Notes under the pieces: generated by a model
What the model was told of the DNA's origin: nothing
Database searches by the model: none
What the model saw: only the letters and a program-made list of their open reading frames with translations
Program-made: the position numbers and the translations under genes
Shown here: in pieces, positions 1,393 to 15,086 of the stretch
Layout of the letters: the number at the start of each line of letters is the position of its first letter
How positions within the stretch are numbered: the first letter of the stretch is position 1
Virus record (IMG/VR): IMGVR_UViG_2778261570_000007
Coordinates: 1-15,215 of that record
Length of the DNA stretch: 15,215 bases
Reading direction: 5' to 3' (one strand)
From: a virus
Lineage: Duplodnaviria > Heunggongvirae > Uroviricota > Caudoviricetes

Positions 1393-1941
1393 GTGAAGGT
1401 TAACAAAAAGAAACTGGCGGAAATTTTTGAGTGCGATGTCAGAACAATCACTGGCTGGCAAAGTCAGGGGCTGAGAGTTTTGTCGGGGGGAGGCAAAGGT
1501 ATCGAAGCCATGTTCAATACTGCAGAAGCCATTGAGTGGTATGCGCAGCGGGAAAAAGATATCGAAAACGAAAAGCTCCGCAAAGAACTGGAAGATTTGC
1601 GTGCGACTGCAGAATCAGATTTACAACCCGGCACCATTGACTATGAACGCTACCGGTTAACCAAAGCACAGGCTGACGCACAGGAGCTGAAAAATGCCCG
1701 TGAAGAAGGGCTGGTGCTGGAAACGGAATTGTTTACCTTCATTCTGCAACGTGTGGCACAGGAGATTTCGGGGATACTTGTACGTGTGCCGCTGACATTA
1801 CAGCGTAAATATCCGGATATTTCACCGTCACACCTTGATGTGGTGAAAACTGAAATCGCGAAAGCCTCCAATGTTGCAGCTAAAGCCGGTGAAAACGTGG
1901 GCAGGTGGATTGATGATTTCAGACGCACAGAAGGCAGCTAA
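1393..1941 (+). CDS. nu1: Terminase small subunit (lambda Nu1 family)
   Basis: GTG start with gagga SD upstream. The N-terminus [70 protein letters not shown] closely parallels lambda Nu1 (MEVNKKQLADIF...GGGKG...ENEKLRREVEELR). It sits immediately downstream of cosB. Confidence 0.9.
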
Positions 1942-3829
1942 TGCAGCCGGTGCGATAGCTACAGGGCTTTTATCTCTCAATATTCCGGTTCCACTGACGA
2001 CAGTTCAGTGGGCTGATAAACATTATTATCTGCCGAAAGAATCTTCATATACCCCCGGACAATGGGAAACCCTGCCGTTTCAGGTTGCCATTATGAACAG
2101 CATGGGAAATGACCGGATCCGCACCGTTAATCTGATTAAATCGGCGCGCGTTGGTTACACCAAAATGCTGTTGGGGGTGGAGGCTTATTTTATTGAGCAT
2201 AAATCCCGTAACAGTCTGCTTTTTCAGCCAACAGATTCTGCTGCAGAAGATTTCATGAAATCTCATGTTGAGCCCACGATAAGGGATGTCCCTGCATTGC
2301 TGGAGCTGGCTCCATGGTTCGGAAGAAAGCACCGCGATAATACACTCACCCTGAAGCGTTTTTCCTCCGGTGTGGGTTTCTGGTGCCTTGGCGGCGCCGC
2401 TGCTAAAAACTACCGTGAAAAATCTGTGGATGTGGTCTGCTATGACGAACTCTCCTCGTTTGAACCGGATGTGGAAAAAGAAGGTTCGCCGACGCTGCTT
2501 GGCGATAAGCGTATCGAAGGCTCGGTATGGCCTAAATCCATACGTGGCTCAACGCCAAAAATTAAAGGCACCTGCCAGATTGAGAAAGCCGCAAATGAAT
2601 CAGCGCATTTCATGCGGTTTTATGTCCCTTGCCCTCATTGCGGGGAGGCCCAGTATCTGAAGTTTGGCGATGATGCGACGCCATTTGGCCTGAAATGGGA
2701 GAAGGGTAAACCGGAAACGGTGTATTACCTGTGTGAACATAATGGCTGTGTGATCCGGCAGTCGGAACTTGACCAGACCGACGGGCGCTGGATTTGTGAC
2801 AATACCGGGATGTGGACGCGCGACGGCCTGGCATTTTACAGCGCCGGCGATGAGGAGATGCCACCGCCGCGCTCCGTCACTTTCCACATCTGGACGGCGT
2901 ACAGTCCGTTCACCACCTGGGTACAGATTGTTTATGACTGGCTGGATGCGCTGAAGGATCCGAACGGTGTTAAGACGTTTATTAACACCACGCTCGGGGA
3001 GCCCTATGAAGAGGCCGTGGCAGAAAAACTGAGCTTTGAGTTGTTGCTGGAAAAAGTCTGCCACTATGGCGCGCAGGTTCCCCTGCGGGTGGTTTACCTG
3101 ACCGCAGGGATCGACTCCCAGAAAGATCGCTATGAAATTTATGTCTGGGGCTGGGCTCCCGGCGAAGAAGCCTTTCTGATTGATAAGCAAATTATCATGG
3201 GGCGACCGGAAGACGAGGACACCCTTAAACGTGTTGATACGGTGATCCGGAAAAAATATCGTCATGCTGACGGTACTGAAATTTCCATTTCCCGTGTCTG
3301 CTGGGATACCGGTGGTATCGACCAGGACATTGTGTATCAGCGTTCCAGGAAACACGGCACTTTTTTTGTGCTTCCCATAAAAGGGGCATCGGTGTACGGC
3401 AAGCCGGTGATCACCATGCCCAAAAAGCGCAACCAGCGTGGTGTGTTTTTGTGTGAGGTGGGCTCCGATACCGTCAAGGAAATGCTGTACGCCCGTTTTG
3501 CCCTGCCGGTGGTCTCTGCCAGTGAAGCCGCCCCGTATACCTTCCGTTTTCCGGATAACCCCGACATTTTTTCGGAAGAAGAGGCGCGTCAGATCGTGGC
3601 GGAAGAGCTGGTGGAGAAGGTGGTTAATGGCAGGGTGAAACTGCTGTGGGATAAAAAAGGGCGACGCAACGAAGCCCTCGACTGCCTGGTATATGCCTAT
3701 GCTGCCCTGCGTATTTCAGTTCAGCGGTGGCAGCTGGATCTTGAAGCACTGGCCCGTGCCAGAAGAGATGAGCAGGACGACGATGAGATGAGTCTGGAAG
3801 AAATCGCGGCTGCACTGAGTGGAGGATAA
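1913..3829 (+). CDS. A: Terminase large subunit (lambda gpA family; ATPase and endonuclease)
   Basis: Long colinear similarity to lambda gpA, for example [25 protein letters not shown], a P-loop-like [54 protein letters not shown] and [20 protein letters not shown] prefer the ATG at 1913 (aggtgg SD at 1903-1908; about 29-nt overlap with Nu1, similar to lambda) over the tracked 1871 start. Confidence 0.92.
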
Positions 3830-3832
3830 AGA

Positions 3833-4042
3833 ATGGTTTATACGCATGAAATGCTTTGTGATGCCCGACGGGCATTACATGAACTGATGATCGGACGTGC
3901 TGTGGTTTCCGTCAGCAAGGACGGGCGTCAGGTTCAGTATTCGCGGGCGACGATTGGTGAACTGCGTCAGTATATTGAAGAGCTGGAAAGTGCGCTGGGT
4001 GTATCCGGACGGCGTCGCGGCCCGGCAGGAGTGGGGCTGTGA
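3833..4042 (+). CDS. W: Head completion / DNA stabilisation protein (lambda gpW family)
   Basis: 69 aa with a ggagga SD. ARRALHELMIGRAVVSVSKDGRQVQYSRATIGELRQYIEELE...RRRGPAG parallels lambda W (AARAALHDLMTGKRV..QKDGRRV...YIAELE...RRRGPAG). Confidence 0.85.
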   Translation: MVYTHEMLCDARRALHELMIGRAVVSVSKDGRQVQYSRATIGELRQYIEELESALGVSGRRRGPAGVGL

Positions 4043-5610
4043 ACAGGGAACTGGTGGATCTTCACGGGCAGCCACTGCGGCAGAGTATGGGGTATTCCGG
4101 AGGGGGTACCGGATTTGGCGGGCAGCTTGCGGAATGGTTGCCTGCACCGGAAAGTGCCGACGTGGCGCTCTTACCTTCCATTCAGCTGGGTAACGCCCGT
4201 GCGGATGATCTGGTCCGTAACAACGGTATTGCCGCAAATGCAGTGGAAATTCATAAAGACCATATCGTCGGGCACATGTTTCGTCTGAGCTACCGGCCCA
4301 ACTGGCGCTGGCTGGGGATGTCGGAAGCTGATTCGCATGCCTTTATTGAAGATGTGGAGGCGGCGTGGATGGAATATTGCGATCCGGTGTTTGGTTCGAT
4401 GGATGTGGAAGGGCGTCGCTCGTTTACCGAATTTATTCGTGAAGGGGTGGGGGTCCATACGTTTAACGGTGAAATTTTTGTCCAGCCCGTATGGGATACG
4501 GAATCCACGTCATTATTCAGAACAAAATTCAAGACCATCAGTCCGAAGCGCGTCAGCACGCCCGGTTATGGTACCGGCGATCGTTTTATGCGTGCCGGAG
4601 TGGAAATCAACCGTTACGGAAAGGCGATGGCTTATCATGTTCAGGACGATGACTGGCCTGGTTACGGTGTCAGCAACTGGACACGGATTGCGGCGACGCT
4701 GCCCTCCGGGCGACCGGGAATGATCCATGTGTTTCAGCCGCAGGAGGACGGACAGACGCGCGGGGCCAACCAGTTTTATTCCGTGATGGAGCGCCTCAAG
4801 ATGCTCGACACACTGCAGGCCACGCAACTGCAGTCGGCGGTGGTGCGGGCGATGTATGCCGCGACGATTGAATCCACTCTGGATTCAGAAAAAGCATTTG
4901 AATATATCGCCGGGGTGGGAGATGGCGGTAAAAATCCCCTGAACACCATCATGAAAGGCTACGCGCGTTATTACGCCACCAATACGGTAAAGCTGGGCGG
5001 GGTCCGTATTCCGCATCTTTATCCGGGGGATTCACTGAATCTGCAGACAGCGCAGAATGCAGATAATGGTTTCTCTGAACTGGAAAAGGCGCTGTTACGT
5101 TACATTGCTGCCGGGCTGGGGGTGTCCTATGAACAGCTTTCCCGTGATTATTCACAGGTCAGTTATTCCAGTGCCAGGGCATCCGCCAATGAGTCGTGGC
5201 GGTATTTTATGGGCAAACGAAAATTTGTGGCCAGCCGACTGGCATCACAGATGTTTGCCTGCTGGCTGGAGGAAGCTCTTATTCGCGGTGTGATCCGCCC
5301 GCCGAAATCCCGTTTTTCATTCTGGGAGGCCCGTTCCGGATGGTGTCGTGCCGAGTGGATTGGTGCCGGTCGCATGGCGATTGATGGCCTTAAGGAAGTG
5401 CAGGAGGCGGTGATGCGTATTGAAGGTGGCCTGAGCACGTACGAGAAAGAGCTGGCCCTGATGGGCGATGACTATCAGGAGATTTTCCGCCAGCAACTGC
5501 GTGAAAGCCAGGAGCGACAGGCAGCGGGTCTTCCCCGCCCCATCTGGATAAAGGACACGTTTCAGCAGCAGATCCGACAGACAACGGGAGAAAATGGCGA
5601 TGCGTCGTAA
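4039..5610 (+). CDS. B: Portal protein (lambda gpB family)
   Basis: GTG start overlapping the W stop by 4 nt, as in lambda. Extensive similarity to lambda gpB, for example GNARADDLVRNNG, FNGEIFVQPVWDT, GQTRGANQFYSVMERLKMLDTLQATQLQSA, LRYIAAGLGVSYEQLSR and MAIDGLKEVQEAVMRIEGGLSTYEKE. Confidence 0.92.
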   Translation: MNRELVDLHGQPLRQSMGYSGGGTGFGGQLAEWLPAPESADVALLPSIQLGNARADDLVRNNGIAANAVEIHKDHIVGHMFRLSYRPNWRWLGMSEADSHAFIEDVEAAWMEYCDPVFGSMDVEGRRSFTEFIREGVGVHTFNGEIFVQPVWDTESTSLFRTKFKTISPKRVSTPGYGTGDRFMRAGVEINRYGKAMAYHVQDDDWPGYGVSNWTRIAATLPSGRPGMIHVFQPQEDGQTRGANQFYSVMERLKMLDTLQATQLQSAVVRAMYAATIESTLDSEKAFEYIAGVGDGGKNPLNTIMKGYARYYATNTVKLGGVRIPHLYPGDSLNLQTAQNADNGFSELEKALLRYIAAGLGVSYEQLSRDYSQVSYSSARASANESWRYFMGKRKFVASRLASQMFACWLEEALIRGVIRPPKSRFSFWEARSGWCRAEWIGAGRMAIDGLKEVQEAVMRIEGGLSTYEKELALMGDDYQEIFRQQLRESQERQAAGLPRPIWIKDTFQQQIRQTTGENGDAS

Positions 5611-7216
5611 TTTATCGCATATTGCCGCCATGGCATTTAATGAGCCGCTTTTACTGGAACCCGCCTATGCGCGGGTTTTCTTTTGCGCGCTGGGTAAAGA
5701 GATGGGAGCCGGCAGCCTTGCCGTTCCTCAGCAGGCTGTTCAGCTTGATGCTGATGGTATGCAACTGGCTGTGACTGACTATATGGCGGGCGGTCAGCGT
5801 CCGGCAAAGAGTTACCAGGTGAAGAATGGCATCGCCATTCTTCCGGTGAGCGGCACGCTGGTGCATAAACTGGGTACCCTGCGGCCTTACTCCGGCATGA
5901 CTGGCTATGACGGCCTGACGGCCCGCCTTCAGATGGCGGTGAATGATCCGGATGTGCGCGGCATTTTGCTGGATATCGACAGCCCGGGCGGTCAGGCTGC
6001 CGGGGCGTTTGACTGTGCTGACATGATTTACCGTCTGCGGGAACAGAAGCCCGTGTGGGCGCTGTGTAATGACATGGCCTGTTCAGCCGCCATGTTGCTG
6101 GCGGCAGCCTGTACCCGTCGGCTGGTCACGCAGACGGCAAAAATTGGTTCGATTGGCGTGATGATGGCGCACACCAGTTACGAGAAACAACTGGCACAGG
6201 AAGGGGTGGACATCACGCTGATTTACTCCGGGCAGCATAAGGTTGACGGCAACAGTATTCAGGCATTGCCGGCAGGTGTGCGTGCAGATTTTCAGCGCCG
6301 TATTGATGAGGCCCGCCGGATGTTTGTCGACAAGGTGGCGCTTTATACGGGGCTGAGTTCAGAGGCGGTGATGAATACCGAGGCTGCCGTTTATGACGGT
6401 CAGGCAGGCATTGATGCAGGCCTGGCTGATCAACTGATTAATGCTGCAGATGCCGTTGAAGTGATGGTTTCTGCACTGAATGACTCTGTTACGAAGGAGA
6501 ATACAATGACTGTTAAAAATCTCACCGTTGCTGAAGCGGTGGCCCAGGAAAATCAGCGCGTGATGGGGATCCTGAATTGTCAGGAGGCGAAAGGGCGCGA
6601 GCAACTGGCGCAAATGCTGGCAGGTCAGCCAGGAATGACGGTTGAGCAGGCGAAAACGTTGCTTGCAGCTGCGCCGGTTGCCGGTACTGACAGCACGGGC
6701 GATCAGATTATGGGGCTGCCGGAAGCAAAGGGGCGTGAGCAACTGGCACAGATGCTGGCAGGTCAGCCGGGGATGACGGTGGAGCAGGCGAAAGCGTTTC
6801 TGGCGGCAGCCCCTGCTGCTGGTGCTGCAGGCACAGGCGATCAGATTATGGCGTTACCGGAAGCAAAAGGGCGTGAACAACTCGCGCAGGCGCTGGCTGA
6901 ACAGCCGGGAATGACCGTTGACCAGGCCAAAACGTTACTGGCGGCGGCACCGGTTGCGGGTTCTGCAAGTGTCGGCGATCAGATTATGGCGCTGCCGGAG
7001 GCAAAAGGGCGCGAGCAACTTGCACAGGCACTGACAGAACAACCGGGAATGACGGTGGCGCAGGCGAAAACGCTGCTGGCAGCCGCGCCGGCGGCATCGC
7101 AACCGTCACAGGAAACACTTTTTGATCGCTTTATGGCACAGCATGCTGCCAGTGCGGTTTCCGGTGGCGGAACTGCCGGGCGCGGGGAGGAAGACCTGCT
7201 GATGAGTATGCCGTAA
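5594..7216 (+). CDS. C: Capsid maturation protease (S49/ClpP-like, lambda gpC family) with an expanded C-terminal scaffold domain
   Basis: Overlaps B by 17 nt. The N-terminus HIAAMAFNEPLLLEPAYARVFFCAL matches lambda C (HIASMAFNEPLMLEPAYARVFFCAL). Protease-core motifs include PYSGMTGY, ILLDIDSPGG, VWALCNDMACSAA and RRLVTQTAKIGSIGVMMAH. At 540 aa it is about 100 aa longer than lambda C because of internal tandem repeats. Confidence 0.9.
   Translation: MAMRRNLSHIAAMAFNEPLLLEPAYARVFFCALGKEMGAGSLAVPQQAVQLDADGMQLAVTDYMAGGQRPAKSYQVKNGIAILPVSGTLVHKLGTLRPYSGMTGYDGLTARLQMAVNDPDVRGILLDIDSPGGQAAGAFDCADMIYRLREQKPVWALCNDMACSAAMLLAAACTRRLVTQTAKIGSIGVMMAHTSYEKQLAQEGVDITLIYSGQHKVDGNSIQALPAGVRADFQRRIDEARRMFVDKVALYTGLSSEAVMNTEAAVYDGQAGIDAGLADQLINAADAVEVMVSALNDSVTKENTMTVKNLTVAEAVAQENQRVMGILNCQEAKGREQLAQMLAGQPGMTVEQAKTLLAAAPVAGTDSTGDQIMGLPEAKGREQLAQMLAGQPGMTVEQAKAFLAAAPAAGAAGTGDQIMALPEAKGREQLAQALAEQPGMTVDQAKTLLAAAPVAGSASVGDQIMALPEAKGREQLAQALTEQPGMTVAQAKTLLAAAPAASQPSQETLFDRFMAQHAASAVSGGGTAGRGEEDLLMSMP
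6506..7216 (+). CDS. nu3: Putative Nu3-like scaffolding protein from an internal in-frame start within C
   Basis: A strong SD aaggaga (6494-6500) precedes an in-frame ATG at 6506 (MTVKNLTVAEAVAQENQRVMGILNC...). In lambda, Nu3 is nested in-frame in the 3' part of C. Internal initiation here is inferred, not demonstrated. Confidence 0.5.
   Translation: MTVKNLTVAEAVAQENQRVMGILNCQEAKGREQLAQMLAGQPGMTVEQAKTLLAAAPVAGTDSTGDQIMGLPEAKGREQLAQMLAGQPGMTVEQAKAFLAAAPAAGAAGTGDQIMALPEAKGREQLAQALAEQPGMTVDQAKTLLAAAPVAGSASVGDQIMALPEAKGREQLAQALTEQPGMTVAQAKTLLAAAPAASQPSQETLFDRFMAQHAASAVSGGGTAGRGEEDLLMSMP
6584..7135 (+). repeat. In-frame tandem repeat, four copies of 138 bp (46 aa), inside the C/Nu3 coding region
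   Basis: Unit starts at 6584, 6722, 6860 and 6998 (period exactly 138 nt). Each encodes about EAKGREQLAQMLAGQPGMTVEQAKTLLAAAPVAG-x6-GDQIMALP. Copies differ by point substitutions and the last copy diverges at its 3' end. Confidence 0.85.
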
Positions 7217-7254: not shown

Positions 7255-7590
7255 ATGATTAAAACCACCACGGAAAAGCGTGCAGATGTGCGCATTTTTG
7301 CCGGAAGCGATCCGGCGCATACCGCAACAGCCACCAGTGGTATCAGTGCTGCCACACCTGCACTGACGCCACTGATGGTGGATGACGCCACCGGAAAACT
7401 GGTTGTCTGGGATGGTCAGAAAGCCGGAACGGCTGTGGGTGTGCTGGCTCTGGCGCTTGCCGGGACCGAGCCCATGCTGACGTACTACAAAAGCGGTACG
7501 TTTGCCACTGAGTCGCTGGTCTGGCCTGGTTCGGTGGATGCGGTGAAAAAAGCCAACGCATTTGTGGGAAGTGCCATCAGCCACGCCTGA
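7255..7590 (+). CDS. D: Head decoration protein (lambda gpD family)
   Basis: 111 aa with a caggagg SD. [38 protein letters not shown]...[15 protein letters not shown]...AFVGSAIS parallels lambda gpD ([27 protein letters not shown]...KLVAWDG...FYKSGTF...AFAGTAIS). Confidence 0.9.
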   Translation: [111 protein letters not shown]

Positions 7591-7612
7591 TGGTGAAGTG
7601 ATTAACTGAAAA

Positions 7613-7642
7613 AACGGGTCGCGATGCGGCCCGTTTGTGTTT
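7613..7642 (+). terminator. Stem-loop with U-rich tail between D and E (candidate partial terminator or mRNA-stabilising hairpin)
   Basis: aacgggtcgc (7613-7622), loop gat, gcggcccgtt (7626-7635): a 10-bp stem including one G-U pair, followed by tgtgttt. It lies 18-47 nt upstream of the E start. Confidence 0.4.
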
Positions 7643-7659
7643 CTGAAGGAAAATAAATT

Positions 7660-8688
7660 ATGGGGTTATTTACCACGCGTCAGTTACTCGGGTACACCGA
7701 GCAGAAAGTGAAATTTCGTGCGCTGTTTCTGGAGCTGTTCTTTCGTCGCACGATCACTTTCCATACTCAGGAAGTCATGCTGGATAAAATTACCGGCAAA
7801 ACACCGGTTGCAGCGTATGTGTCTCCGGTGGTGTCAGGCAAAGTGCTGCGCAGCCGTGGTGGTGAAACCCGTGTGTTACGTCCCGGTTATGTAAAACCAA
7901 AACACCGCTTTGATTATCAGCAGGCAGTGGAACGTCTTCCGGGAGAAGATCCGGCCCGCCTTAATGACCCGGCTTACCGCCGTCTGCGTATTCTGACGGA
8001 CAACCTGAAACAGGAAGAGCAGGCGATTGTGCAGGTGGAAGAAATGCAGGCAGTCAGTGCTGTTCTGCAGGGTAAATACACTATGAGCGGCGAGCAGTTT
8101 GAGACGGTGGAAGTGGATTTTGGGCGTTCTGCCGCCAATAACATTACGCAGGCTGGCGGACGCGAATGGTCAAAGCAGAATGCTGACACCTTTGATCCGA
8201 CGCATGATCTTGATGCGTACTGCGATTTTGCTTCCGGTACCATCAATATCGCGATTATGGACGGCACGGTCTGGCGTATGCTGAACGGTTTTAAACTGTT
8301 CCGTGAAAAACTGGATACCCGCCGTGGCTCCAAATCTGAGCTGGAAACCGCACTGAAAGACCTGGGGTCCGTGGTTTCCTTTAAGGGCTGGTACGGCGAT
8401 CTGGCTGTCGTGGTGGCGAAGACAACGTATGTTGACGAAAACGGGGATGAACAGCGTTATCTGCCGGAAGGCACACTGATTCTGGGAAATACCCAGGCGG
8501 AAGGCGTCCGTTGCTATGGCGCAATCCAGGATAATCAGGCGCTGAGTGAAGGGATCACCTCTGCGATTCGTTATCCGAAACACTGGGAGGAAGTGGGGGA
8601 TCCTGGTTGCGAATATACCATGACGCAGTCTGCGCCGTTGATGGTGCTGCCGGATCCGGATGCGTTTGTGGTGGTTCAGGTGAAATAA
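7660..8688 (+). CDS. E: Major capsid protein (lambda gpE family)
   Basis: 342 aa (lambda E is 341). Extensive colinear similarity: YVSPVVSGKVLRSRGG, PGYVKPKH, EDPARLNDPAYRRLRI, AIVQVEEMQAVSAVLQGKYTMSGEQF, NNITQAGGREWSK, KLDTRRGSKSELETALKDLG, LGNTQAEG and TMTQSAPLMVLPDPDAFVVVQ. Confidence 0.93.
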   Translation: MGLFTTRQLLGYTEQKVKFRALFLELFFRRTITFHTQEVMLDKITGKTPVAAYVSPVVSGKVLRSRGGETRVLRPGYVKPKHRFDYQQAVERLPGEDPARLNDPAYRRLRILTDNLKQEEQAIVQVEEMQAVSAVLQGKYTMSGEQFETVEVDFGRSAANNITQAGGREWSKQNADTFDPTHDLDAYCDFASGTINIAIMDGTVWRMLNGFKLFREKLDTRRGSKSELETALKDLGSVVSFKGWYGDLAVVVAKTTYVDENGDEQRYLPEGTLILGNTQAEGVRCYGAIQDNQALSEGITSAIRYPKHWEEVGDPGCEYTMTQSAPLMVLPDPDAFVVVQVK

Positions 8689-8693
8689 GACAG

Positions 8694-8719
8694 GGCGGGA
8701 TATTCCCGCCTTTTTCTTT
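8694..8719 (+). terminator. Rho-independent terminator-like hairpin immediately after E
   Basis: ggcggga (8694-8700), loop tat, tcccgcc (8704-8710): a perfect 7-bp GC-rich stem followed by tttttcttt (8711-8719). Confidence 0.7.
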
Positions 8720-8738
8720 AGCGCACGGGAGAGATGTG

Positions 8739-9104
8739 ATGACAAAAGAGCAGATGACTAAACGTTTGCAGGAACTGGCAGTGATTCTGGGGCGTGAAGC
8801 AGATATTTCAGGTTCAAAAGCCGATCTTGAGCAGCGTCTGGCGGAATGGGAGGAGGAGGCCGCTGGATTCGATGGGGAGGAGACGGGGAAGGAAGAGGTG
8901 GGCAACGATGCATCCGGCGACGGAATGCATTCTGAGCAGGGACTCGCCCGGGTGCGTATGCTGAAAACGGCGCATATGCCAGCCTGTGATGCTGTGACGG
9001 GAAAAATGTTGATGTTTGCCCGGGCCTCCAGTGTTGTGCTGGTTAATGAAGCCGCAGTTCCTGCGTTGCTGGCAGACGGTCTGGCAGAAAAAATCCGGGA
9101 GTGA
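8739..9104 (+). CDS. FI: DNA packaging / head assembly protein (lambda gpFI family)
   Basis: ATG at 8739 with a gggagag SD, in frame with tracked ORF 8607..9104. The N-terminus MTKEQMTKRLQELAVILGREADISGSKADLEQRLAEWEEE resembles lambda FI (MTKDELIARLRSLGEQL...GTKEEL..RVAELKEE). The middle is acidic and the C-terminal domain hydrophobic, as in FI. Confidence 0.75.
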   Translation: MTKEQMTKRLQELAVILGREADISGSKADLEQRLAEWEEEAAGFDGEETGKEEVGNDASGDGMHSEQGLARVRMLKTAHMPACDAVTGKMLMFARASSVVLVNEAAVPALLADGLAEKIRE

Positions 9105-9508
9105 TGATGTTCGATAATCTGTTCGATCAGGCCATGAGTGATGCGGATGACATCATCCTGGATACGATGGGGACGGAAATCAGCATATATCCGGGCGGCA
9201 CGGAAAGAAAAATCCGTGCCGTTTTTGATGCCCCGGCAGATAACACCGGGATGAACACTGGCAGCGGCGAAATTCGTGATACTGCGCCCGTGTTATTTAC
9301 CCGGAGCGCATGGGCCGCCGGTCTGAAAAAATATGACAGGGTCATGATCCACGGCGAACCCTATCAGGTAGTCGATCCCGGCTGGGATGAGTCAGGCGCT
9401 GCGGGTCAGGGGGTGATTACCATCACCCTTGCGCGTGGAGAGCCCGGGAGAAATACACCTGCTGCACCGGAACGACCGAGTAAACGTTATGGCAGTCAGA
9501 GAGCATGA
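9104..9508 (+). CDS. FII: Head-tail connector protein (lambda gpFII family)
   Basis: MMFDNLFDQAMSDADDIILDTMGTEISI...AVFDAP...PVLFTRS...GLKKYDRVMIHGE parallels lambda FII (MADFDNLFDAAIARADETIRGYMGTSATI...GVFDDP...PSLFVRTDE...LRRGDTLTIGEE). The start overlaps the FI stop. The exact start (GTG 9101, ATG 9104 or ATG 9107) is uncertain. Confidence 0.8.
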   Translation: MMFDNLFDQAMSDADDIILDTMGTEISIYPGGTERKIRAVFDAPADNTGMNTGSGEIRDTAPVLFTRSAWAAGLKKYDRVMIHGEPYQVVDPGWDESGAAGQGVITITLARGEPGRNTPAAPERPSKRYGSQRA

Positions 9509-11381: not shown

Positions 11382-11402
11382 ACGCCGCACCGGCGTTTTT
11401 TT
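11382..11402 (+). terminator. Terminator-like hairpin with T-run between V and W (candidate attenuator)
   Basis: acgccg (11382-11387), loop cac, cggcgt (11391-11396), followed by a 7-T run (11396-11402). The next gene starts at 11415 without an obvious SD. Confidence 0.4.
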
Positions 11403-15044: not shown

Positions 15045-15063
15045 AAAAGAAGTTAATCATCTG

Positions 15064-15086
15064 ACCGCCTGAGGGCGGTTTTTTTA
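15064..15086 (+). terminator. Rho-independent terminator after the tail fibre assembly gene
   Basis: accgcc (15064-15069), loop tgag, ggcggt (15074-15079), followed by a 7-T run (15079-15085), about 20 nt after the G stop. Confidence 0.7.

Follow-up and report, generated by a model that had tools for sequence, protein, structure and literature searches.

The window, by which we mean the whole 15.2-kb stretch of DNA analysed here (15,215 nucleotides), is a section of an E. coli prophage. Its segment 8400-9500, which served as the query for our searches of the E-FI region, is 100% identical to a prophage in strain E41 and in several other complete genomes, while the window as a whole shows 326 differences from the E41 copy, most of them past 10,200. 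The E41 prophage adjoins a tRNA-Ser gene and the hya operon and has a lambdoid early region whose last genes are RusA and then a Q-like gene. Within the window we found genes for the terminase small subunit (1393-1941), the terminase large subunit (1871-3829), a W-like adaptor (3833-4042), the portal (4039-5610), the protease/scaffold (5594-7216) and a D-like decoration protein (7255-7590), followed on the + strand by a major capsid protein gene of the lambda gpE family (E, 7660-8688, with its TAA stop codon at 8686-8688) and by FI, the gene for the DNA-packaging chaperone (8739-9104). The gene for a FII-like head-closure protein (9101-9508) comes next, and P2-like baseplate, tail-fibre and tail-fibre-assembly genes lie 3' of it. 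The virion module is thus chimeric over the whole window (and over 13000-35340 of L003, the locus whose coordinates we use for the prophage at large), joining a lambda/21-type head, Nu1 through FII, to a baseplate, tail fibre, sheath and tube of P2 type; on its tail side, the search query had no DNA-level match among the phage records of the collection searched.

A preliminary description of this DNA had placed a canonical intrinsic terminator inside the late operon, directly after the major capsid gene and before FI. The position is confirmed by Pfam and PHROG matches to both flanking genes: the capsid protein matches Pfam Phage_cap_E (E = 7.8e-66) and the PHROG major head protein, with amino acid identities of 82% to phage 21 gp7 and 59% to lambda E, and the product of the next gene matches Pfam Packaging_FI (E = 9.9e-14) and PHROG_92 ('DNA packaging chaperone FI'). 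RefSeq likewise lists a 'major capsid protein' and gpFI at identical coordinates in the matching prophage.

The gap between E and FI is 50 nt long (8680-8740 reads gtgaaaTAAgacagGGCGGGatattCCCGCCtttttctttagcgcacGGGAGAGatgtgATG) and holds a hairpin at 8694-8710, GGCGGG-AUAUU-CCCGCC, followed at 8711-8719 by the U-run UUUUUCUUU, which abuts the stem and within which the release site is expected. All parts read on the + strand. A spacer of 5 nt (8689-8693), hypervariable in relatives, separates the capsid stop codon from the 5' arm GGCGGG (8694-8699), which pairs with the 3' arm CCCGCC (8705-8710) across the loop AUAUU (8700-8704). When the sequence was re-read, the coordinates first given for the element, 8694-8719, proved exact, and the U-run was there as described, with 8 T in 9 positions. 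The 'perfect 7-bp GC stem' of the preliminary description does have seven pairs, but it is not all GC: six are G:C and the seventh is the A:U pair A8700:U8704, which can form in the window copy and closes a 3-nt loop. Two more outer pairs are possible there, G8693·U8711 and A8692:U8712, bringing the stem to 9 pairs both in the built-in scan and in RNAfold. The 17-nt hairpin has a predicted energy of -12.2 kcal/mol, which the outer pairs lower to -14.4. The element ends 19 nt before FI, whose ATG lies at 8739, and 7 nt separate the end of the U-run from the Shine-Dalgarno-like GGGAGAG of FI (8727-8733, + strand). In the predicted fold, the hairpin does not include this ribosome-binding site, so control of FI translation through sequestration of the site is unsupported.

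We asked how far such an element exceeds chance expectation. A scan of the whole window for generic terminator patterns returned 20 sites against 14.8 ± 4.5 expected, with no overall enrichment over shuffles, so we wrote a stricter score, d, of the d'Aubenton-Carafa type, in which the hairpin energy per nucleotide and a T-tail weighted by position are combined. Its use rests on internal calibration and on shuffles. On lambda, the scanner gave 25 for tR2, 23-30 for t_oop, 40 for a site after lom and 19 for one after rexB; it failed to detect lambda tR' and is therefore conservative. On this one scale, the post-capsid element scores d = 35.1, above lambda tR2 and t_oop, and it has the top score on either strand of the window. 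By comparison, 200 dinucleotide shuffles of the window yielded a mean of 0.105 sites with d >= 0 per strand and none with d >= 25, and an equally stable hairpin appeared in 0 of 500 shuffles of the 60 nt past the capsid stop codon. The minus strand of the window has no site with d > 0 and the element read in reverse has no T-tail; with no convergent gene present either, a bidirectional terminator was ruled out. A known RNA family was also ruled out, as no Rfam 15 model matched anywhere in the window at gathering score, or in 7500-8900 even at E <= 1.

To learn which parts of the element are maintained, we collected 80 loci from viral contigs in a search with a capsid-protein alignment and 7 loci from species genomes, and built an alignment (A2) of 20 distinct sequences that carry the hairpin type of the window. 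Among these relatives, the stem arms and the U-run together have a single variable column out of 21. The sole arm change is a C->T in the 5' arm (1/6 columns), which keeps a G·U pair; the 3' arm (0/6 columns) and the U-run (0/9 columns) do not vary. Two of the five loop columns are variable, with ATATA and ATAAC found in L011 and L034. By contrast, variation is common around the element: in 5 of 6 alignment columns of the spacer between stop codon and stem, in 15 of 20 columns of the non-coding bases past the U-run and, taking the other non-coding columns of the E-FI gap together, in 20 of 26, as well as in 23 of 30 third-codon positions at the end of E. The difference between functional and other non-coding columns gives a Fisher p = 7e-7, a value that is indicative only, as shared ancestry and recombination connect the sequences. 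Both stem arms and the U-run are thus evidently under purifying selection in the lineage of the window, as read from this alignment. The A8700:U8704 pair is broken in the relatives with loops ATATA or ATAAC, so the conserved structure consists of six G:C pairs and a 5-nt loop; position 8692/8693 is freely variable, and to judge from the same alignment neither the A8700:U8704 pair nor the two outer pairs are constrained in this lineage. A region of 66 nt around the element is present in 78 of 5426 complete E. coli genomes and always lies between the capsid gene and FI, which rules out a dispersed or REP-like repeat.

The designation as a canonical intrinsic terminator accordingly stands: a GC-rich stem in the usual range (about 5-12 bp, with a short loop) is abutted by a U-rich tract of usual length (about 7-9 nt), on the + strand and in non-coding DNA, with a score beyond chance and above those of lambda tR2 and t_oop, and with arms and U-run under purifying selection.

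A wider survey, in which the stop codon of the E homologue was located in 90 loci and 13 further annotated phages, gave a different picture of the U-run. A stable hairpin with a perfect stem lies within about 35 nt past the E-type stop codon in 16 of 19 sequence-distinct lineages, and in each of the 16 it is matched by at most 5 of 500 shuffles of its own 60 nt. The stems are unrelated in sequence. Beside the GGCGGG/CCCGCC type of the window, they include CGGCGGG-GAAA-CCCGCCG in Providencia prophages, CGGGGGC-GAAAU-GCCCCCG in the phage 21 type, AAAGGCCUG-AUU-CAGGCCUUU in the Gifsy-1 type, AUGGCCC-UUCG-GGGCCAU in lambda and GUGGCCC-…-GGGCCAC in N15 and phi80, and further post-capsid hairpins occur in Aeromonas, Vibrio, Hafnia (Enc34), Burkholderia, Ruegeria, Rhodobacter and Synechococcus phages. 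One pair of the phage 21 group shows a compensatory change from G:C to A:U with a G·U intermediate, leaving 84 of 84 cells paired; this covariation is statistically weak, its score being reached by 21 of 500 shuffles. The only lineages without a post-capsid hairpin among the 19 sampled are two Firmicute phages and one cyanophage. In the former, Clostridium phage Saumur (L100) and Paenibacillus phage phiERICV (L101), the capsid gene abuts the next gene and leaves no intergenic gap; in the latter, cyanophage Cr-LKS3 (L097), a 165-nt ORF directly follows the capsid gene. The annotated FI start of phi80 (NC_021190, L104), at position 1463, falls inside the post-capsid hairpin, 9 nt past the capsid stop codon, and some 40 nt further on, at about 1502, there is an alternative ATG with GGAG ahead of it, as in N15. 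From its sequence context, the annotated start is probably mis-called.

The T-tail is not kept across the family, and d at the homologous site ranges from +40 to -40. About 40% of the 16 hairpin lineages have no usable U-run, among them N15/phi80, Enc34, K280 and a Trabulsiella prophage, and the phage 21 U-run starts only 5 nt past the stem, behind an intervening GUGUC. Where the U-run is missing, the hairpin tends to be longer and more stable. By d, the lineage of the window is among the best terminators of the whole set. With the U-run absent or offset in several enteric relatives, what is conserved at the position is not termination itself, and the hairpins that persist without a U-run speak for a role of the RNA hairpin, for example in 3' protection, as what the family has in common. 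This argues that RNA protection, or another role that depends on the hairpin, may be the function shared by the family. The invariance of the U-run in the lineage of the window argues that termination would also matter there.

We next considered the operon in which the element sits. All annotated genes from 6880 to 35340 of L003 lie on one strand with only short gaps, and E and FI belong, with the other head genes and the lysis and tail genes, to one co-oriented block that follows a Q-like gene, which bears out the location inside a late operon given in the preliminary description. The Q-like antiterminator gene (L003 6880-7422, upstream of the window in the same prophage) directly follows RusA; its product matches Pfam DUF1133 (E = 2e-100), narrowly passes the Phage_antitermQ cut-off (26.3 bits against 26), falls into PHROG_753 ('anti-termination protein Q-like') and weakly matches the Q21 structures 6P18 and 6JNX (E = 0.003). 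Just after this gene we read by eye a promoter-like TTGTAT-17-TTTAAT, and about 70 nt downstream of it lies CCCGC-UUUAU-GCGGG followed by U8, with d = 37.9. The Q-like gene, the promoter-like site and this strong terminator form a putative equivalent of the pR'/tR' layout of lambda, in which we recognised no Q-binding element and no pause site. Two tRNA genes and a DNA methyltransferase gene lie between this unit (L003 6880-7612) and the lysis genes. The late region as a whole contains at least 8 co-oriented terminator-like sites, including ones after D, E, the tail-fibre assembly gene and the tail tube gene, and essentially none on the opposite strand. A processive antiterminator would be the obvious way in which such an operon is expressed. 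Lambda Q and Q21 are reported to act as a nozzle that narrows the RNA exit channel, so that terminator hairpins are unable to form (as summarised in PMC11150451). Translation can have a similar effect: when lambda tR2 was set 5 bp past a stop codon, termination in vivo fell from about 90% to less than 10% through ribosome occlusion, and this repression was relieved by uncoupling translation (Li et al., PMC4824070). As the stem of the post-capsid element begins 5 nt past the stop codon, termination on the translated late mRNA may be weak even without Q.

The capsid gene also has a hairpin on its other side. The 69-nt gap between D and E holds a companion hairpin of 11 bp on the + strand (7612-7636), AAACGGGTCGC-GAU-GCGGCCCGUUU followed by GUGUUUCUGA in RNA, or AAACGGGTCGC-GAT-GCGGCCCGTTT followed by GTGTTTCTGA in DNA, with d = 14.8. 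Together with the post-E element, it brackets the capsid gene. Positional equivalents of this hairpin are found in lambda (canonical, with a T7 run), 21, Gifsy-1, N15 (an annotated terminator) and Vibrio phage K280.

We consider it likely that the post-capsid element is a true Rho-independent terminator which selection has maintained in the E-FI gap of a late operon under Q antitermination, and that it works through a combination of read-through and 3' protection. From its anatomy, its statistical excess, the purifying selection on arms and U-run, the family-wide position of the hairpin and the upstream Q-like gene with its promoter-proximal terminator, we infer a mechanism in which Q read-through, ribosome occlusion, RNA stabilisation and partial termination would each have a part. 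GGCGGG/CCCGCC would fold in the nascent RNA while the weak rU:dA hybrid of UUUUUCUUU sits in the polymerase, and an unmodified polymerase would release within this run. During lytic growth, most polymerases would start at the late promoter together with the Q-like factor and read through, and with only 5 nt between stop codon and stem, the ribosome terminating on what would be the most heavily translated late gene would cover the 5' arm and add to the read-through. Embedded in polycistronic RNA, the hairpin and its twin after D would block 3'->5' exonucleases once the downstream RNA has been cleaved, or after a minority of termination events, and the D-E message would thereby become enriched relative to that of FI and the tail genes. 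The element would also halt polymerases that lack both Q modification and a coupled ribosome, for example those of stray transcription in the lysogen. Q read-through and ribosome occlusion together could make termination negligible, in which case the selection on the U-run would need another explanation. A literature search for direct measurements at the E-FI gap of lambda found nothing usable.

A rival account is a pure RNA-stability hairpin that blocks 3'->5' exonucleases and protects the capsid message, with negligible termination and a U-run that is incidental or serves, for example, as an A/U-rich site of RNase E entry or in Hfq binding. The family-wide data fit this account, with a hairpin in 16 of 19 lineages, a U-run that is often absent or displaced and values of d from +40 to -40, and so does the greater length and stability that hairpins tend to have where a U-run is missing; moreover, Q modification and the 5-nt spacing both predict read-through. 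A bare exonuclease block would need no U-run, however, and the 9-nt run is invariant in the 20 distinct sequences next to non-coding bases that are free to vary. We hold the pure form of this account to be possible but doubtful; a protective and a terminating role are compatible with each other. Two other fates of the RNA were considered. RNase III processing was set aside on general grounds, a stem of 7-9 bp being far below the typical length of an RNase III substrate, and a 3'-UTR-derived, Hfq-binding small RNA found no support, as a RIL-seq study of lambda has small RNAs elsewhere and not at E.

Alternatively, the element might act mainly as an insulator, stopping polymerases that did not come from the late promoter with Q and so keeping the tail genes silent in the repressed prophage. 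In favour of this role, the late region has at least 8 co-oriented terminator-like sites as against almost none on the other strand, and the authors of a study of phage L proposed this role for an intra-operon terminator after the procapsid module (PMC8022706). Yet promoter-like sites upstream in the head genes do not exceed chance (12 found, 12.0 expected), and insulation leaves unexplained both why hairpins follow the most abundant structural genes (D, E and tail tube) and why the hairpins of relatives have no U-runs. We judge this role on its own to be unlikely.

It is likewise improbable, in our estimate, that the element is a partial terminator that sets stoichiometry in the manner of T7 T-phi, ending a fixed fraction of transcripts and thus lowering the mRNA of FI and the tail genes relative to that of D and E. 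In lambda, D and E are needed at about 400 copies per head, against minor or catalytic amounts of the downstream products, and the site sits exactly where the required protein copy number drops; its strong terminator features and conserved U-run also count in favour. Against this, in the classical view of lambda it is translation initiation that sets the ratios of late gene products, on a transcript that is roughly equimolar, and Q-type antitermination is processive across terminators. Ribosome occlusion at a spacing of 5 nt, moreover, nearly abolished the function of tR2 (PMC4824070).

Finally, a functionless palindrome arising by chance, or left as the relic of a junction between recombining modules, would be compatible with the lack of enrichment of generic terminator-like patterns in the window (20 against 14.8 ± 4.5) and with a megablast match to phage 21 that ends exactly at the E stop codon, but this reading is effectively refuted by the conservation data, namely purifying selection on arms and U-run and a position kept with unrelated sequences in 16 lineages, and by the shuffles, of which 0/200 and 0/500 match the element, so that we give it next to no weight. 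A module junction at the E stop codon was itself ruled out, since blastn extends the similarity to phage 21 through the gap and into FI.

Returning to a selected terminator with read-through and 3' protection, we tentatively entertain a broader version of it, which we would not expect to hold as readily. Throughout the family, the hairpin set within a few nucleotides of the E-type stop codon, and perhaps the D hairpin too, could constitute a conserved, ribosome-gated RNA element whose primary function is independent of termination and which defines and protects a discrete, long-lived D-E sub-message, while the U-run, where present, would add a conditional terminator for polymerases that are neither Q-modified nor trailed by a ribosome. 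If this were true, the 'intra-operon terminators' of lambdoid and P22-like phages would serve quite generally to fit the dose of mRNA to capsid stoichiometry, and the classical picture of an equimolar late transcript that is tuned only by translation initiation would need revision.

How does the element relate to signals known from other phages? One close precedent is N15 (GenBank NC_001901), in which a 'putative rho-indep. transcription terminator' is annotated both at 5980-6004, in the gap between genes 7 and 8, and at 7053-7073, in the gap between genes 8 and 9. As in the window, a GC-rich hairpin of similar size and the same orientation lies between a capsid gene of the lambda E type and FI, with a twin after the D homologue. 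Unlike the window, the N15 stem GUGGCCC-AUUC-GGGCCAC is followed by CUUUCUGG, a poor U-run, which brings d to -12.5 as against +35.1. A terminator behind the capsid gene is nothing unusual: related phages already have one annotated at this position. Lambda has hairpins after E (7165-7182) and after D (6101-6114), with homologous genes and gaps on the corresponding strand and with the hairpin starting 3-5 nt past the stop codon, but its post-E tail, UUGUUUCUCU, makes for a much weaker site (d = 9.7). The stronger terminator-like site follows D in lambda (d = 17-22) and E in the window.

Outside this family, the T7 terminator T-phi is a hairpin right after major capsid gene 10 that lets transcription continue partially into the downstream virion genes. 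Its target is T7 RNA polymerase, the phage has no Q-type antitermination, and the partial efficiency of T-phi has been measured. The window shares with it a hairpin terminator, here a predicted one, directly behind the major capsid gene. Lambda tR2 and tR', the promoter-proximal terminator that Q overcomes, belong to the same class of signal; tR2 has d = 25, and the tR'-like site of the prophage 37.9, compared with 35.1 for the window element. They differ in setting, however: tR2 and tR' are regulatory gates at the entry to an operon with a long untranslated or distant upstream context, whereas the window element lies 5 nt past a heavily translated gene, deep inside an operon.

In the P22-like phage L, a predicted terminator ends the procapsid gene module inside a late operon with a single promoter, and the authors suggested that it might terminate partially or halt transcription that proceeds without antitermination, calling the roles of such terminators unknown (PMC8022706). 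Both phages have a predicted intrinsic terminator at the end of the head genes in a late operon with Q-type antitermination; phage L differs in its capsid family, that of the P22 coat protein, and in its phage architecture.

Terminator-like hairpins after major capsid genes are therefore familiar, from the annotation of N15, the discussion of phage L and the textbook case of T7 T-phi. The copy in the window is an unusually clean example, with a score on a par with that of the putative Q-gated terminator of the prophage, selection on arms and U-run and a stem 5 nt past the stop codon, and it would be well suited to studying the interplay of Q modification, ribosome occlusion and RNA decay at an internal terminator. 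The survey adds that phages of proteobacteria and cyanobacteria maintain the hairpin, and not the U-run, behind their E-type capsid genes, which sharpens the question of what intra-operon terminators do.

Several other terminator-like sites were recorded along the way. Upstream of the terminase genes, at 337-360, lies GGCACTGGTAGCGATACTGGTGCC followed by TTTTTTATT (d = 27.5). A small hypothetical ORF of RefSeq (L003 11915-12070, corresponding to 314-469 of the window) runs across this site and may for that reason be spurious. A site at 15063-15080 (d = 26.9) follows the tail-fibre assembly gene just before the sheath gene, a gene boundary that in P2 is an operon boundary, and the strongest site of the prophage, GGCGGC-TCAG-GCCGCC followed by T8 (L003 28711-28726, d = 49.6), follows the tail tube gene; like those after D and E, both come after genes for abundant structural proteins. 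An identical terminator-like hairpin, CCCGCCTATGCGCGGG followed by TTTTCTTTTG, occurs about 66-69 nt inside gene C (protease/scaffold) in the window (5660-5675) and in lambda (J02459, 4487-4502). It may reflect coding conservation. Li et al. (PMC4824070) report that a terminator situated within the first 100 bp of a gene can be efficient. Weaker sites are CGCCG-CAC-CGGCG followed by T7 at 11383-11395, where the baseplate V-like and W-like genes are separated by 33 nt (d = 13.7), and a 9-bp hairpin followed by TTTTTG at 9196-9221, inside the FII-like coding sequence (d = 14.1).
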